In this document: positions 1 through 5,450 of the stretch, piece by piece
Position numbering within the stretch: the stretch's first letter is position 1
Layout: the number at the start of each line of letters is the position of its first letter
Assembly (NCBI GenBank): GCA_034666565.1
Contig: JAXDLN010000003.1
Coordinates: 474 to 64,473, forward strand
From: Chloroflexota bacterium
GTDB lineage: Bacteria; Chloroflexota; Dormibacteria; CF-121
DNA length: 64,000 nucleotides
Direction of reading: 5' to 3'
Program-made: the position numbers and the translations under genes
The notes under the pieces: generated by a model
The model's input: the letters and a program-made list of their open reading frames with translations, nothing else
Databases searched by the model: none
What the model was told of the DNA's origin: nothing

Positions 1-183
1 CACCTGTTTGACCCGCTCGTCGAACTCTGCCAGCCACTCTTCCATCGGCCGCTTGATCTGGGGGCGCGGGGCGCGTGGCTCCTCGGGCCAAATTCGCGGC
101 CGTTCGGGGCGGATTGCTTCCGGCGGCGGGTCGGCGTCGGTCGGCTCGGGCTCGAGCGCGATCTCAGGTGGGAGTTCCGACAT
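1..183 (-). CDS. partial CDS (N-terminal part, continues past window start); acidic/Pro-rich hypothetical protein
   Basis: ATG at 183 on minus strand with open frame to position 1 (MSELPPEIALEPEPTDADPPPEAIRPERPRIWPEEPRAPRPQIKRPMEEWLAEFDERVKQV...); start lies 20 nt inside the 3' end of the upstream gene. Confidence 0.3.
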   Translation of the reverse strand, partial: MSELPPEIALEPEPTDADPPPEAIRPERPRIWPEEPRAPRPQIKRPMEEWLAEFDERVKQV

Positions 184-1003
184 CTGCCGAAATCTTAACC
201 GGGGCCTGCTCGTTGACCGGGTGGTCCGCGGTCCACACCGTAAGGAACCGGCGGCGGAACCGCTCCAGCGCCGAAATCACAGCGGAGCCCAACACGACGA
301 TCAACAGCAGGTTTCCCGCGGCTCGGAAGGCGTCGTAGACGAGCGACGTTGCCAGATAGAAGCCGCCAAACCGGCGAACCAGGGCCACGAGGCCGATTCC
401 GGGCGCCCAGCTGAGCGGCGACGAACCGGCGGCGACCAGGAGCGGCCACTCCCAGAGGTCGAGCAGGATGCCGTAGGCGAAGCCGGCCGCGAAGCCGTAG
501 AGGGACAGCACCGCGATCGTTTTCGGTGAGGGCCGGCGGCCGCTGAGCCGGCCGATGTATCCGGCGCCCATGCCGACCCAGCCGGCGGCCAGCATCTGGT
601 ACGGCAGCCAGGGCCCGAGGCCGGCGGTGAGGACGGCCGAGAGCAGAAGGGTCAGCGCGCCGGTCGCGAAGCCAAAGCTCGGACCCATGACGAAGCCGCC
701 CGCGATGACCAGGAAAAAGATCGGCGAAAACCCGAGCAACCCGATCACGATCACCAGCCGAAGGGTGGCGTCGATCGCGACCAACGCGGCGAGGATCGTG
801 AGCAGACGAGTCGAAAGGCGATGCGTTTGGAGGGCGACCGCCAGCGCGATCATGGCGGAAACCGCGACCAGCGCGCTGAAGAGCAGGACCGGCTGCGGAA
901 ACCGCGAACCCAAAAAGAGCGGCGCCAGGAACAGCACGAGTCCGGCGCCGGCGAGCGCCAGCAAGACGGCATCCTCGGCGCGCGCCACGATCCAGGTCCT
1001 CAT
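164..1003 (-). CDS. polytopic membrane protein, candidate ECF transporter substrate-capture (S) component
   Basis: ~8 hydrophobic helices; likely true start MRTWIV at 1003 forming an ATGA overlap with the ecfA stop; last gene of the riboswitch-controlled ECF operon. Confidence 0.45.
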   Translation of the reverse strand: MRTWIVARAEDAVLLALAGAGLVLFLAPLFLGSRFPQPVLLFSALVAVSAMIALAVALQTHRLSTRLLTILAALVAIDATLRLVIVIGLLGFSPIFFLVIAGGFVMGPSFGFATGALTLLLSAVLTAGLGPWLPYQMLAAGWVGMGAGYIGRLSGRRPSPKTIAVLSLYGFAAGFAYGILLDLWEWPLLVAAGSSPLSWAPGIGLVALVRRFGGFYLATSLVYDAFRAAGNLLLIVVLGSAVISALERFRRRFLTVWTADHPVNEQAPVKISADVGTPT

Positions 1004-2517
1004 AACGGGACCTGTTCGGCGAGCAGCCAGCCTCCGCCGACGAGCTTGCTGATCTGGGTTGCGAAGACGAGCGAGTCGCTCAGCACGGCGCCGGGGGGTC
1101 CGTCGGCATAGATCTCGCCGTCCGCCATCAGAAGGATACGGTCGGCCGTGCGGGCCGCCCACTCGACATCGTGCGTTGCGATCACGATCGCCGCGCCGGC
1201 AGCCGCGCGCATCCGCAGAAACGTGCTCAGGGCCTGTTTGACCAGCGGGTCGAGGCCGCGTGTTGGTTCGTCGAGGAGCAAGACGTCCGCCTCCCCCGCG
1301 ACCACGGCGATCGCGAGCTGCTGCCGCTCACCCGAGCTGAGGTCGCGCGGATAGCGATGCAGCCAGCGCTGAAACGGAGCCGCCACCTCGGGCGGTTGGC
1401 CGCGCAATTCATCTTCGACGGTGGCGGAGAAGAGCAGGGCGTCGGCGTCTTGCGGCACATAGGCGGCGCGGGCATCGGCGTGGACCGTCCCACGTTGCGG
1501 ACGAAGTAGCCCGGCGACCACCCTCAGGAGGGTGGTCTTCCCCGACCCGTTGCGGCCCATCAGCGCAGTAATTTGGCCGCGCCGCAAGCTCAGCGTCAGC
1601 CCGCGTACGGCCGGGACGCCGTTGTAGCGAAACTCGAGGTTCTCGATCTCGCAGATAGCCGGCCCCCACCCTGACCCTCCCTCAGAGGGGGACGGTTGAC
1701 GGTAGGGTGGGGGCTTGGGCAGGCGTTGGGCATGAACGCGCGCATCGCGCAGGCCAAGCGGAATTGGGGTCCACCCGGCGCGCAGCGCCAGGTCGACCAC
1801 CGGCGGTCGGGCGCCACCCTCGGCGAGCGCGGTTCGGGGGGATTGATCCTTCAGCGTTCCAGCGTCGAGCGTCCAGATCCGATCGACGAAGGGCGCGATC
1901 CGTTCAACGCGATGCTCAGCGATCACCGTGGTCATGCCCAGCTCGGCGACCAGCCGCATCACCACCTGGAGCACATCTTCGGCCGCTTGCGGATCGAGCT
2001 GCGAGGTTGGCTCGTCGAGCACGAGCGCCTGCGGATGCACGGCCAGCGCGGCCGCGATCGCGACGCGCTGTCGCTCGCCACCCGAGAGGGTATCGATTCG
2101 GCGGCGGCGCAGGTGGTTGATGCCGACCTGGTCGATCACCTCCTCGACGCGTTTTCGCATCAGCGGAGCTGAGAGGCCGAGGTTCTCCATCCCGAACGCG
2201 AGCTCGGCCTCGACGTCGTCGAGAACGAACTGAGCGTCCGGATGCTGGAAGACGAAACCGATGCGCGCTCCGAGGTCGCGAGGCGCGTGGGTGCGCGTGT
2301 CGAGGCCGCACGCGATCACGCGGCCGCTGAACTCCCCGCCGGTGCTGTGGGGCACCAGCCCGTTGAGGCATCGAAGCAGCGTCGACTTGCCGCTGCCAGA
2401 TGGGCCGCGCAGCAGGATGACCTGCCCTGGTTCGATGGTGGCCGACACGTCGACAAGGGCCGGGGGTTCGGCCGCCGGATAACGGTAGCTGACGCCCTCA
2501 AGCGTGATGAGCGCCAT
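1000..2517 (-). CDS. ecfA: ECF transporter duplicated ATPase (two ABC ATP-binding domains, EcfA1-EcfA2 fusion)
   Basis: two Walker A motifs (GPSGSGKST and GRNGSGKTT), LSGGE/LSSGE signature and Walker B (LVLDEPT, LLLDEPT); likely start MALITLEGVSYRYP at 2517 rather than ORF start 2748. Confidence 0.85.
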   Translation of the reverse strand: MALITLEGVSYRYPAAEPPALVDVSATIEPGQVILLRGPSGSGKSTLLRCLNGLVPHSTGGEFSGRVIACGLDTRTHAPRDLGARIGFVFQHPDAQFVLDDVEAELAFGMENLGLSAPLMRKRVEEVIDQVGINHLRRRRIDTLSGGERQRVAIAAALAVHPQALVLDEPTSQLDPQAAEDVLQVVMRLVAELGMTTVIAEHRVERIAPFVDRIWTLDAGTLKDQSPRTALAEGGARPPVVDLALRAGWTPIPLGLRDARVHAQRLPKPPPYRQPSPSEGGSGWGPAICEIENLEFRYNGVPAVRGLTLSLRRGQITALMGRNGSGKTTLLRVVAGLLRPQRGTVHADARAAYVPQDADALLFSATVEDELRGQPPEVAAPFQRWLHRYPRDLSSGERQQLAIAVVAGEADVLLLDEPTRGLDPLVKQALSTFLRMRAAAGAAIVIATHDVEWAARTADRILLMADGEIYADGPPGAVLSDSLVFATQISKLVGGGWLLAEQVPL

Positions 2518-4088: not shown

Positions 4089-5201
4089 TTACGAGCTGCG
4101 TGCGCGTCTCCGCGGTCGCAAGACAAGACCCAGGGCGAGGGCGATGAGGGCGAGGCCGCCAAGCAGGGGTCGCCCATCAACGGGCGCGCCGGTCTGCGCG
4201 AGGACGGGCGCAGTCGTGGGGGTCGGGTGTGGGGTCGGGCTCGCCGTCGCAGCCGCTGGGCAGGCGAGCAGTGAGACAGCGCTTTCAGAAAGGCCTCCCG
4301 CCGTGAGAGGTCGCCGCAGAAAAGCGGCTGGCGCGTCGGTGGTGGCAAATAGCTTGCTATAGGCGTTGGCGATGGCGCCGGCATCGGCGCCGCTTGCGAT
4401 CTGCTGTCCGGCGAGATAGGACTGCGCCAGGTCGAGCTTCGTCTTCCAGCCGGCATCGGACTCCAGATGCGCGGCGAGGATGGTCTGGATAGCGAGTTCG
4501 TCGGAGTTGGGATCGGGTGGGGATCCAGGCGAACTGCCGAAGCCGCCGCTGGCGAAGACGCTCTGCAGATATGTGAACCCCTTGGTGATCGCCGGGTCAT
4601 CGGCCGCGCCGCCGGCGCCGATCAAAGCCTGGATCACCAGCGCGGTGGTGTTCGAATCCTCGCCGTACTGGTCCGCGTTGTCGGCGCTCCAGCCGCCGTT
4701 GGCCTTCTGCTGACCCTTGAGGAACGCGACCGCGTCGTCGCCCACGGTCTGGCCCGCGGCACGAAGACCCAGAATGGCGAGCGCATCACTATAGATGTCG
4801 CTGCCGTATTCGCCGTTGAGCCCCTTGGCCAACTGCAGTTGCGCCGCTACCGGTGCGATCGGCCCCGCGTCAGGAACGGAGGCGCGTGCCAGCAGCAGCT
4901 CGCCGTTGGTGCCGACCTCGGTGCTGGTGACTGTCTTCAAGTAGTCGGCGAGGGAGGTTGCCCCCGTATGCATCGCGGAGGCTTGCTGCCCCGCGGCCGC
5001 CAGGCCGATGGCAACTTCTGACGAGCGGGCGATCGGGTTGCCGCCGGTGCCGATCTGGCCGTTGGCCTGTTGCTGGGTGCACTGCAGCCATTGCAGGGCT
5101 CGCTGGGCATTGGAGCTCGCCGGTGTTTGAGCGGATGCGGCCACCGAGGCGAGCAGAAAAATGGATGGGGCGAGCAGACTCGCCACGATACGTCGTTGCA
5201 T
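4089..5201 (-). CDS. cell-wall-anchored protein with prenyltransferase/squalene-oxidase-like repeats; LAQTG sortase signal
   Basis: N-terminal signal peptide; repeated G-G-W/SADN...TALVIQAL motifs typical of alpha-alpha toroid prenyltransferase-like repeats; C-terminal LAQTG + hydrophobic stretch + RPRRRARSS tail (class E sortase LAXTG type). Confidence 0.6.
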   Translation of the reverse strand: MQRRIVASLLAPSIFLLASVAASAQTPASSNAQRALQWLQCTQQQANGQIGTGGNPIARSSEVAIGLAAAGQQASAMHTGATSLADYLKTVTSTEVGTNGELLLARASVPDAGPIAPVAAQLQLAKGLNGEYGSDIYSDALAILGLRAAGQTVGDDAVAFLKGQQKANGGWSADNADQYGEDSNTTALVIQALIGAGGAADDPAITKGFTYLQSVFASGGFGSSPGSPPDPNSDELAIQTILAAHLESDAGWKTKLDLAQSYLAGQQIASGADAGAIANAYSKLFATTDAPAAFLRRPLTAGGLSESAVSLLACPAAATASPTPHPTPTTAPVLAQTGAPVDGRPLLGGLALIALALGLVLRPRRRARSS

Positions 5202-5274
5202 GTGTACCTCCAGATCTTTGCTGGAGGCCGATTCAGAAGATGCCTGGCACCTCCCTCTCAGCCTCGAAGAGGGT

Positions 5275-5450
5275 CGTGGTCCCCGACAGGCAGGTCTCCT
5301 GGCTCCGGATCCTTGCCGCTGGGCTCCTTCCCAAGGCTTTTGGCCTCAGTGGATCTCGCCCACGGCTCCCCGGTTACAGTGACGGGTTCGCGCCGGATTC
5401 ACACCGGCTTTCCTTTTCAGCTCACTTCGAGCCACCTGTCGGCGCTGTTC
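5275..5450 (-). ncRNA. cobalamin (B12) riboswitch in 5' leader of the surface-protein/ECF operon
   Basis: minus-strand leader reads ...GAAAAGGAAAGCCGGUGUGAAUCCGGCGCGAACCCGUCACUGUAACCGGGGAGCC...UCCACUGAGGCCAAAAGCCUUGGGAAGG...AGCCAGGAGACCUGCC, matching the conserved GGUGnnAAUCC / CCCGnCACUGUnA / B12-box CCACUG / terminal GCCAGGAGACCUGCC elements; downstream CCUCCAG...CUGGAGG hairpin can sequester the GGAGG RBS of the 5201 start. Confidence 0.75.

Follow-up and report, generated by a model that had tools for sequence, protein, structure and literature searches.

An operon at one end of the window (the whole stretch of DNA analysed, 64,000 nucleotides of contig JAXDLN010000003.1) is best explained as a cobalamin-repressed system of corrinoid scavenging, in which surface capture would feed an ECF importer, and we regard this explanation as probable. 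Judging from genomic context and fold class, two surface proteins encoded by the operon probably catch B12 outside the cell. Downstream of a cobalamin riboswitch lie five tightly coupled minus-strand genes, listed here with the leader elements and an adjoining reading frame:

5272..5454, minus strand: cobalamin riboswitch aptamer (RF00174)
5253..5273, minus strand: conserved expression-platform hairpin CCCUCU-UCGAGGCUG-AGAGGG, from leader comparison
5206..5229, minus strand: SD-sequestering hairpin, from local folding
4089..5201, minus strand: g1, secreted alpha/alpha-toroid protein with a sortase signal, 370 aa, distantly SCO2321-like (AF2, Foldseek, NCBIfam)
about 3331..4089, minus strand: g2, secreted SCO2322-family (PF28005) protein with a sortase signal, about 250 aa (NCBIfam, Pfam of orthologs)
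2498..3334, minus strand: g3, EcfT (T component), 278 aa
1000..2517, minus strand: g4, fused EcfA-EcfA' ATPase, 505 aa
164..1003, minus strand: g5, CbrT-like ECF S-component, 279 aa
1..183, minus strand: g6, conserved ORF recognised by ortholog identity, which overlaps the g5 end and continues past the window edge; operon membership uncertain

The initial annotation had placed a cobalamin riboswitch in the minus-strand leader and proposed a covariance-model scan as a check; the scan matches RF00174 over the whole model (1-189) at 107.5 bits (E 6e-26) against a gathering score of 31.5 bits, and the B12-box strings quoted at that time fall within the alignment. Orthologous aptamers score 104-130 bits in the 20 related loci that have the whole aptamer on the contig, and the 5'-truncated aptamer of locus L008 matches at 41.8 bits. 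The ribosome-binding-site hairpin described earlier is likewise present: the anti-SD CCUCCAG (5222-5228) pairs with the SD in CUGGAGG (5207-5213), whose GGAGG lies 5 nt upstream of the g1 AUG at 5201, and the local fold has 8 bp and an energy of -12.2 kcal/mol. This anti-SD/SD pair occurs in 20 of the 21 leaders read, with loops of 7 to 16 nt, and was confirmed by pattern matching and folding in nine of ten re-examined; in L018 a C-to-U change keeps a G.U pair. When the 101-nt leader is folded for minimum free energy, the SD pairs with an upstream CCUCU, not with CCUCCAG; the z-score is an unremarkable -1.5. Sequestration of the g1 SD in a leader hairpin is well supported, and a terminator is additionally present in some orthologous loci. 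The CCCUCU/AGAGGG hairpin was seen in all 21 leaders read (pattern match checked in the ten re-examined), L012 keeping a G.U pair through a double change, C-to-G and G-to-U; it may serve as a kissing-loop partner or anti-sequestor.

The B12-responsive arrangement is conserved. Riboswitch and identical gene order recur in 21/21 related Dormibacterota-type loci, which answers the earlier call for a comparison of gene order, and riboswitch, toroid gene and SCO2322 gene recur in all four distant Chloroflexota loci, whose SCO2322 proteins share only 29-33% identity with g2. Three of these four (L022, L023 and L025) also carry ECF genes and, directly downstream of the module, the gene of a PduO-type cobalamin adenosyltransferase (PF01923); in L024 the toroid/SCO2322 pair stands under the riboswitch without adjacent ECF genes. 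Toroid and small-protein genes are adjacent in every case, and one protein, P0358, is a natural fusion of the two. Across two phyla, every locus with its upstream region available (25/25) has the riboswitch ahead of the toroid gene, in agreement with the B12 regulation proposed earlier.

The coupling of the genes is also as first described, with junctions formed by a GTGA (the g2 TGA overlapping the GTG start codon of g3), a 20-nt overlap and an ATGA (the g4 TGA overlapping the g5 ATG). The EcfT assignment of g3 holds: it matches the EcfT structure 5d3m_D (E 1.7e-4), carries the ARG motif in ...SLDARGFG... and scores 24.8 bits with PF02361 (CbiQ; cutoff 25). The fused EcfA-EcfA of the initial annotation is recovered in g4 as two PF00005 domains (176 bits), with further matches to TIGR01166 cbiO (247 bits, cutoff 211.8) and TIGR04520 ECF_ATPase_1 (299.9 bits). 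For g5, "polytopic membrane protein" was too general, the gene encoding an ECF S-component (PF12822, 34.4 bits, cutoff 30.7). Its best PDB match as a single sequence is 6FNP_A (CbrT, E 0.0086), from a B12 ECF transporter (PMC5997447). By sequence, the g3-g5 transporter looks B12-specific, since the g5 ortholog profile matches CbrT at E 8e-7 and the next-best S-component, FolT, at 0.19. As for g6, its first 60 aa are 67-98% identical across 18 loci, and its full-length counterpart in L006 (228 aa) has a disordered Arg-rich tail and matches no Pfam family.

Cobalt importers such as CbiMNQO are also under cobalamin-riboswitch control, which favours the view that the transporter imports another substrate (cobalt, heme, or an incomplete corrinoid such as cobinamide) and that the surface proteins capture that substrate. 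CbrT transports cobinamide too (PMC5997447), the downstream adenosyltransferase would be equally useful for salvaged cobinamide, and a Lactobacillus sakei system of the same architecture has been linked to heme uptake (bioRxiv 10.1101/864751). We nevertheless consider such a substrate unlikely: g5 is not of CbiM/N type but matches PF12822 and CbrT, regulation of heme uptake by a cobalamin riboswitch would lack a rationale, and the toroid clamp is sized like the transcobalamin alpha-domain, too big for a metal ion.

The LAQTG-anchored protein of the initial annotation corresponds to g1, which has a signal peptide and LAQTG at residues 334-338 (4188-4202), followed by a hydrophobic segment and the tail RPRRRARSS; 36 orthologs all keep L334, T337 and G338. 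The AF2 model (pLDDT 78.8, core >90) is a confident single alpha/alpha toroid of ~275 aa, and Foldseek matches it to terpene cyclases (E 4e-6), RabGGTase beta and, somewhat less well than the cyclases, cobalamin-bound transcobalamin (E 4e-5 to 4e-4). On this model g1 shares its fold class with the B12-binding alpha-domain of transcobalamin, and fold class together with genomic context makes it a candidate corrinoid-binding alpha-part. At the sequence level g1 scores 49.6 bits with NCBIfam SCO2321_fam, below the cutoff, and none of the 36 orthologs reaches E <= 0.1 with PF01122, the eukaryotic cobalamin-binding family, with which an Anaerolineae toroid homolog scores 24.5 bits (cutoff 25). Weak SQHop_cyclase_C and Prenyltrans matches and a profile match to the squalene-hopene cyclase repeat (E 5e-9) could mean that g1 works outside the cell as a terpenoid cyclase or prenyltransferase. 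That g1 is such an enzyme is highly improbable: all its Pfam and NCBIfam scores lie at or below family cutoffs, the DxDD motif was not found in it, its one toroid compares with two domains in a cyclase, and it is secreted and, by its signal, wall-anchored, remote from isoprenoid diphosphate substrates.

The second surface protein, g2, matches NCBIfam SCO2322_fam at 29.1 bits; its orthologs carry PF28005 (Pfam "SCO2322"), a family of 1,343 representatives, and g2 has four invariant cysteines. A signal peptide, LASTG at residues 212-216 (3442-3456), a hydrophobic stretch and RRRRR agree with its earlier description as a small anchored protein. In this window canonical start codons are absent from the first 57 codons of the g2 reading frame, and the start is likely the CTG at 4078-4080. 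Resemblance to the transcobalamin beta-domain was not demonstrated by hhalign (P = 0.1), no family member matches the Pfam DUF4430/SLBB models, a recognisable ligand-binding fold was not found, and the AF2 model (pLDDT 44.8) is too low for use. In the literature searched, SCO2322 is not mentioned, and SCO2321 appears once, in an unrelated paper. We propose g2 as the partner of g1.

To our knowledge ECF transporters by definition work without extracytoplasmic binding proteins, which counts against surface capture. The same holds for the better match of g1 to terpene cyclases than to transcobalamin, for the failure of its orthologs to reach PF01122, and for the results on g2, namely its start codon and the missing tie to the transcobalamin beta-domain. 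The ECF module might then import B12 by itself, the anchored pair being merely co-transcribed and serving in adhesion, in envelope maintenance or in binding lipids or polysaccharides; in favour of this, no binding protein is required for ECF transport, terpene cyclases and prenyltransferases are the closest fold and sequence matches of g1, and g2 lacks a recognisable ligand-binding fold. Such a role seems improbable to us, however, given that the pair stands under the riboswitch in all 25 loci, the ECF-less L024 included, that both genes are translationally coupled to those of the transporter, and that transcobalamin-like proteins in operons of the same design have been published (PMC1796856; bioRxiv 10.1101/864751).

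In the scavenging system that we favour, sufficient intracellular B12 would bind the leader aptamer and lock the g1 ribosome-binding site in the hairpin, turning off the entire operon because its genes are translationally coupled. Under B12 scarcity a dedicated (group I) ECF transporter would be made of EcfT, fused EcfA-A' and the CbrT-like S-component, the last carrying the corrinoid through the membrane, while g1 and g2 would be secreted and joined to peptidoglycan through their LAxTG signals by a class-E-type sortase. A non-enzymatic alpha6/alpha6 toroid (g1) and a disulfide-bonded SCO2322-family domain atop a long Pro/Ala/Ser/Thr stalk (g2) would then clamp the corrinoid like the transcobalamin alpha- and beta-domains, concentrate it in the wall and hand it to the S-component.

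In mammalian transcobalamin, intrinsic factor and haptocorrin, a ~300-aa alpha6/alpha6 toroid and a small second domain, on a single soluble chain, enclose cobalamin; the g1 model retrieves cobalamin-bound transcobalamin structures, but g1 has no significant sequence similarity to these proteins and no homology of g2 to the beta-domain could be demonstrated. In Bacteroidetes, BtuG and BtuH are surface-exposed, high-affinity B12-capture lipoproteins that act ahead of a membrane transporter under B12 riboswitch control; they are of beta-propeller type, sit lipid-anchored on an outer membrane and supply a TonB-dependent transporter, so that with folds unrelated to those of g1 and g2 they offer a functional analogy only. 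The best solved relative of g5, CbrT of Lactobacillus delbrueckii ECF-CbrT (PDB 6FNP; PMC5997447), is a group II S-component of 182 aa; it uses a shared general ECF module and lacks partners outside the cell, whereas g5, with its N-terminal hydrophobic extension, belongs to a group I dedicated module with fused ATPases in one operon.

Closer in design is the ECF-like operon lsa1836-1840 of Lactobacillus (Latilactobacillus) sakei, annotated in the genome as cobalamin transport (bioRxiv 10.1101/864751), which likewise encodes an S-component, fused A-A', a T component and two separate secreted proteins, one of them an alpha/alpha toroid related to the transcobalamin alpha-domain. There HHpred gave both secreted proteins a clear link to the transcobalamin alpha- and beta-domains, whereas here g2 is SCO2322/PF28005 with no detectable beta-domain link and the toroid falls short of PF01122; LAxTG sortase signals on both proteins, the cobalamin riboswitch and another gene order also set the present operon apart. 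Experiments on lsa1836-1840 are reported to point to heme rather than B12 uptake (bioRxiv 10.1101/864751), a result that counts against B12 capture here. Burroughs, Balaji, Iyer and Aravind (2007; PMC1796856) described bacterial transcobalamin-like SLBB and alpha/alpha-toroid surface proteins, secreted or anchored in the Gram-positive manner and encoded with CbiO/CbiQ-type (ECF) genes, as predicted B12 scavengers. Their systems similarly combine a secreted or anchored toroid and a small domain, beta-rich in theirs, with ECF genes; they come from low-GC Gram-positives, planctomycetes and euryarchaea and carry a genuine SLBB domain that in most cases is part of the toroid chain. The present system belongs to Dormibacterota and has relatives in Chloroflexota and, going by family name alone, in Streptomyces; its two parts are separate chains, and SLBB membership of g2 was tested and not demonstrated. 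Capture coupled to an ECF transporter is not new as a concept, because it was predicted by Burroughs et al. and all five parts have counterparts in the L. sakei operon; the operon described here is a new lineage-specific version, differing in that its two extracellular proteins are members of uncharacterised families, SCO2321-like and SCO2322 (PF28005), and that each has its own sortase signal.

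The locus can be read, with high confidence, as a B12-regulated corrinoid importer. It consists of a cobalamin riboswitch followed on the same strand by five genes (g1 to g5):

Features of the operon and its leader
5272-5454, minus strand: cobalamin riboswitch (RF00174), 107.5 bits (gathering score 31.5; E 6e-26), aligned to model positions 1-189 of 189
5201-4089, minus strand: g1, toroid surface protein, 370 aa
about 4089-3331, minus strand: g2, small surface protein, candidate member of the SCO2322 family
3334-2498, minus strand: g3, probable EcfT; CbiQ (PF02361) at 24.8 bits (cutoff 25), EcfT in the PDB at E 1.7e-4, ARG motif
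2517-1000, minus strand: g4, fused EcfA-A'; two PF00005 ABC domains, TIGR01166 (cbiO) at 247 bits (cutoff 211.8)
1003-164, minus strand: g5, S-component; PF12822 at 34.4 bits (cutoff 30.7)

The five overlapping or coupled genes that the initial annotation had placed behind the riboswitch are borne out by gene calls and junctions, and its LAQTG-anchored protein, small anchored protein and fused EcfA-EcfA are all present, as is a probable EcfT; the observation is confirmed. What it had described as a polytopic membrane protein is, more precisely, an ECF S-component. Since genes overlap at g2/g3 (GTGA), g3/g4 (20 nt) and g4/g5 (ATGA), they are translationally coupled. At the g1/g2 junction (4075-4095, minus strand) the TAA of g1 overlaps an ATT codon (TAATT), and g2 has no ATG, GTG or TTG from the upstream in-frame stop to codon 58, its signal-peptide region still being conserved as protein. 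A CTG at 4080-4078 lines up with the GTG start in two related loci, L001 and L004, as well as with the first Met (Met-1) in the related proteins P0128 and P0131, and is also found in locus L005; g2 may thus have a near-cognate start or be translated by reinitiation, or the sequence may contain an error.

The riboswitch was identified by a covariance-model scan over the whole window, a check suggested by the initial annotation, which had proposed such an element in the leader of the gene at 5201; the conserved B12-element strings it had named fall inside the RF00174 alignment. Rfam thresholds applied to the window returned nothing besides this riboswitch and two tRNA genes (20846-20919, minus strand, 60.1 bits; 56711-56783, plus strand, 65.7 bits), and a promoter and terminator scan gave nothing above chance. 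The proposed RBS-sequestering hairpin also folds: the anti-SD CCUCCAG and the SD-bearing CUGGAGG form 8 bp (-12.2 kcal/mol), 5 nt ahead of the AUG. Both arms are visible in 20 of the 21 orthologous leaders read, and pattern matching together with folding upheld the hairpin in 9/10 leaders re-examined; its loop varies in length (7 to 16 nt) and in sequence, and one C-to-U change leaves a G.U pair. All 21 leaders also show a second hairpin upstream (CCCUCU/AGAGGG, loop UCGAGGCUG), with one double change in locus L012 that preserves pairing, and in the leader of this same locus a deletion takes out the whole anti-SD hairpin. Sequestration of the SD is well supported. The precise ligand-dependent switch is something we can only infer, because the minimum-free-energy fold of the 101-nt leader pairs the SD with another partner and has an unremarkable z-score. 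Three leaders (L007 at ~5790-5835, L010 and L011) carry an inserted GC-rich hairpin and U-run between the aptamer and the SD hairpin, the terminator-like hairpin of L007 reaching -17.7 kcal/mol, which suggests that transcriptional and translational control are combined there.

The S, T and A genes form one operon of overlapping genes, an arrangement kept in related loci. Counterparts of g3 in Chloroflexota are annotated as CbiQ, and g4 scores 299.9 bits against TIGR04520, slightly under the cutoff of 315. The nearest solved structure to g5 is 6FNP chain A (E 0.0086 with the single sequence), and a nine-sequence ortholog profile gave E 8e-7 for 6FNP_A against 0.19 for the next best, FolT. 6FNP is ECF-CbrT, a characterised vitamin B12 ECF transporter (PMC5997447). 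The likeness of g5 to CbrT, as far as profile comparison goes, indicates relatedness and not orthology, since identity is low. ECF-CbrT belongs to group II, whereas in the window all components are encoded together (group I) and the ATPases are fused; g5 is also longer, with 279 aa against 182 aa for CbrT. Its surplus N-terminal region (~60 aa) is hydrophobic, recurs in the Chloroflexota counterparts (252-279 aa) and possibly adds two membrane helices. Import of another substrate, such as cobalt, incomplete corrinoids or heme, is a less favoured possibility, given the likeness of the S-component to CbrT and the presence of the riboswitch.

The association with a cobalamin riboswitch recurs outside the window. 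A pattern search with the g2 alignment returned 21 loci, all in Dormibacterota-type MAGs, and RF00174 occurs at the same position and on the same strand in 21/21, with aptamers of 104-130 bits in 20 loci and a match of 41.8 bits, cut by the contig end, in L008. Comparison of gene order, likewise suggested as a check, gave g0, riboswitch, g1, g2, T, AA, S, g6 wherever the contig reaches, g0 and g6 being the flanking ORFs. When the g2 ectodomain was used for an exhaustive profile search, 1,343 cluster representatives matched at E <= 0.001, of which 96 were sampled; the more than 1,300 representatives of the SCO2322 domain spread over Chloroflexota and Dormibacterota, and, judging from the family name, the domain also occurs in Actinobacteria. 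Four distant Chloroflexota members have SCO2322 proteins 29-33% identical to g2, and in all four loci (L022 to L025) a cobalamin riboswitch (51-61 bits) is followed by a toroid and a SCO2322 protein. In L022, L023 and L025 the pair is followed by ECF genes (for an S-component, for CbiQ and for a fused ATPase) and by a gene for a cobalamin adenosyltransferase of the PduO type (PF01923). In L024 (4341-7582, Chloroflexota-type) the genes behind the riboswitch encode an unknown protein of 160 aa, a pterin-binding protein resembling methyltransferases, a short toroid (262 aa) and the SCO2322 protein, and ECF genes are not adjacent. The presence of the pair under a riboswitch without adjacent ECF genes argues that the two proteins have a B12-related role of their own and do not simply travel with the transporter. 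A riboswitch lies upstream of the toroid genes in 25/25 loci with upstream sequence; an unrelated wall function of g1 and g2 is disfavoured by this co-regulation, the ECF-less L024 included. A short contig of another lineage carries SCO2322, T, AA and S in the same order as the window.

Several further features accompany these loci. Directly upstream of the riboswitch lies g0 (5528-5869, minus strand), a 113-aa hypothetical protein with no match in Pfam and NCBIfam, which is 79-95% identical in 20 of the 21 related loci, i.e., in every contig reaching it; on the plus strand (5993-7780), a divergently oriented gene encodes a 595-aa, full-length member of DUF6909 (708.7 bits). At the other end g6 (1-183, minus strand), a sixth ORF, overlaps the end of g5 and leaves the window; across 18 loci its first 60 aa show 67-98% identity. 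In locus L006 (10886-11572) the complete protein is 228 aa long, has a disordered tail rich in Arg, Gly and Pro and matches no Pfam family, and the gene after it encodes an ECF-type sigma factor. The L022 module (1-4244, Ardenticatenaceae) adjoins reductive-dehalogenase-like genes (PF13486, VcrB, FMN_bind, ApbE), which are corrinoid-cofactor users. Two loci come from oddly labelled bins, L004 from ‘Candidatus Sulfotelmatobacter sp.’ (Acidobacteriota; g2 78% identical to that of the window, other proteins up to 88%) and L008 from ‘Candidatus Nitrosopolaris sp.’ (an archaeon; g2 57% identical), probably reflecting MAG mis-binning and not lateral transfer.

Both surface proteins have an N-terminal signal peptide and a C-terminal LAxTG motif, LAQTG in g1 (residues 334-338, 4188-4202) and LASTG in g2 (residues 212-216, 3442-3456), and in both a hydrophobic stretch and then an Arg-rich end come after the motif; that of g1 is invariant across its orthologs. 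Given this combination of signal peptide, LAxTG, hydrophobic stretch and arginine tail, their predicted architecture is that of sortase substrates. Class E sortases are specific for LAxTG, and a search for the TLxTC motif of a cognate sortase among the ORFs of the 64-kb window found none.

AF2 models g1 with confidence (pLDDT 78.8, core above 90) as one alpha/alpha toroid made up of some 11-12 helices. Foldseek against the PDB matched it to squalene-hopene-cyclase-like terpene cyclases (E 4e-6), RabGGTase beta-subunits and a thioester domain, and also to cobalamin-bound transcobalamin (2v3n, 7qbg, 2bb6, 4zrp, 8ixu; E 4e-5 to 4e-4). In its alpha6/alpha6 fold class the model agrees with the alpha-domain by which transcobalamin binds B12, but the search is not specific to that domain, because cyclases and prenyltransferases score equal or better. 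Fold was accordingly set aside as a means of telling transcobalamin from cyclases, Foldseek placing both in one E-value range. An enzymatic role is unlikely for g1; a search of the protein for DxDD (as a D.DD string), the class II terpene cyclase catalytic motif, found none. PF01122 (transcobalamin/intrinsic factor) matched 0/36 g1 orthologs at E <= 0.1, and a distant Anaerolineae toroid homolog gave a marginal 24.5 bits against the cutoff of 25. Against the SCO2321 family NF053823, g1 reaches 49.6 bits with an equivalog cutoff of 300 and by this score is a distant relative, not an equivalog; its family scores are all at or under their cutoffs.

The conserved ectodomain of g2 (~135 aa, four invariant cysteines) sits on a long Pro/Ala/Ser/Thr linker. 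Against NF040672, the SCO2322 family model matched by 95 of the 96 sampled relatives, g2 scores 29.1 bits with a cutoff of 85; a sequence search of g2 against a Pfam copy lacking PF28005 gave no match. Several of its close orthologs, and almost every distant relative, bear the precomputed tag PF28005, which is the Pfam ‘SCO2322’. A motif, YWSYW..G..Y.V.DGDVEGW, gave rise to the expectation that g2 is a transcobalamin beta-domain (SLBB/DUF4430). This expectation was not borne out: hhalign of the 96-sequence g2 family profile with the human and rat TCN2 beta-domain (human query 100% identical to 4ZRP/2BB5) did align the expected segment, at an insignificant Prob 0.6% and P 0.1, and the Pfam SLBB/DUF4430 models matched 0/96 family members. 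A PDB profile search with g2 was empty, a PDB sequence search gave chance matches at most, and Foldseek with an AF2 model from a shallow 32-sequence alignment, too poor to be usable (pLDDT 44.8), found nothing (best E 2.2). Kinship of g2 to the SLBB domain is an unproven possibility.

Genes of the g1 and g2 types are invariably adjacent, and the related protein P0358 (587 aa; locus L028, 1019-2782) is a natural fusion of an N-terminal SCO2322 domain with a C-terminal toroid, adjoining a further stand-alone toroid gene. This adjacency, translational coupling and the one natural fusion argue for coupling of g1 and g2. Another relative, P0364 (775 aa), has several SCO2322 domains in tandem (5 matched stretches). 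It is tempting to propose that under B12 limitation the leader permits translation, whereupon a dedicated ECF-CbrT-like importer would be built and the two sortase-anchored proteins placed on the wall, where they would jointly bind corrinoids and raise the local concentration for the S-component; with B12 sufficient, the aptamer-bound leader would hold the SD paired and the coupled operon off. That g1 and g2 bind corrinoid is suggested, with moderate confidence, by gene context and fold class. More tentatively, and with the balance tilting slightly against it, the SCO2321-like toroid and SCO2322/PF28005 might form a two-chain, peptidoglycan-tethered corrinoid clamp acting as an extracytoplasmic binding front end of an ECF transporter, the SCO2322 domain then being either a corrinoid-binding fold not recognised before or a beta-grasp that has diverged extremely far. 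Should g1 and g2 not bind corrinoids, some other reason would have to be sought for their strict co-regulation.

To our knowledge, B12 acquisition by monoderm soil bacteria at trace concentrations is poorly understood, and many members of the Chloroflexota and Dormibacterota are believed to rely on an external supply of the vitamin. The locus and its 25 relatives tie SCO2321-like toroids and SCO2322/PF28005 to cobalamin through riboswitch, CbrT-like transporter and adenosyltransferase, giving a concrete, testable annotation for two uncharacterised families. ECF transporters are a class defined by having no extracytoplasmic substrate-binding protein; if true, the clamp reading would qualify the textbook rule that they need none and would give two widespread but uncharacterised families a function.

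Literature searches returned nothing relevant for LPXTG with cobalamin and ECF, no mention of SCO2322 and a single unrelated paper for SCO2321. Surface capture feeding an ECF importer is a supported reading of the locus, but as a concept it is not new, given an earlier prediction and an operon of Lactobacillus sakei. Burroughs et al. (2007) reported surface proteins of bacteria in which an alpha/alpha toroid is combined with a beta-grasp (SLBB) domain resembling that of transcobalamin; many carry Gram-positive anchors and lie in operons with CbiO/CbiQ, and a role in B12 scavenging was predicted (PMC1796856). The L. sakei operon lsa1836-1840 encodes S, fused A-A', T and two separate secreted proteins, which HHpred assigned to transcobalamin beta- and alpha-domains, and its deletion affected heme uptake (bioRxiv 10.1101/864751). 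Corrinoid binding by g1 and g2 would provide experimental ground for the 2007 prediction of split, wall-tethered bacterial transcobalamin analogues. The tie of the small partner to SLBB is unproven here, and the window locus differs from these precedents further in belonging to different phyla and in drawing its extracellular parts from uncharacterised families, each independently sortase-anchored; its value lies in extending a known idea to new phyla and families.
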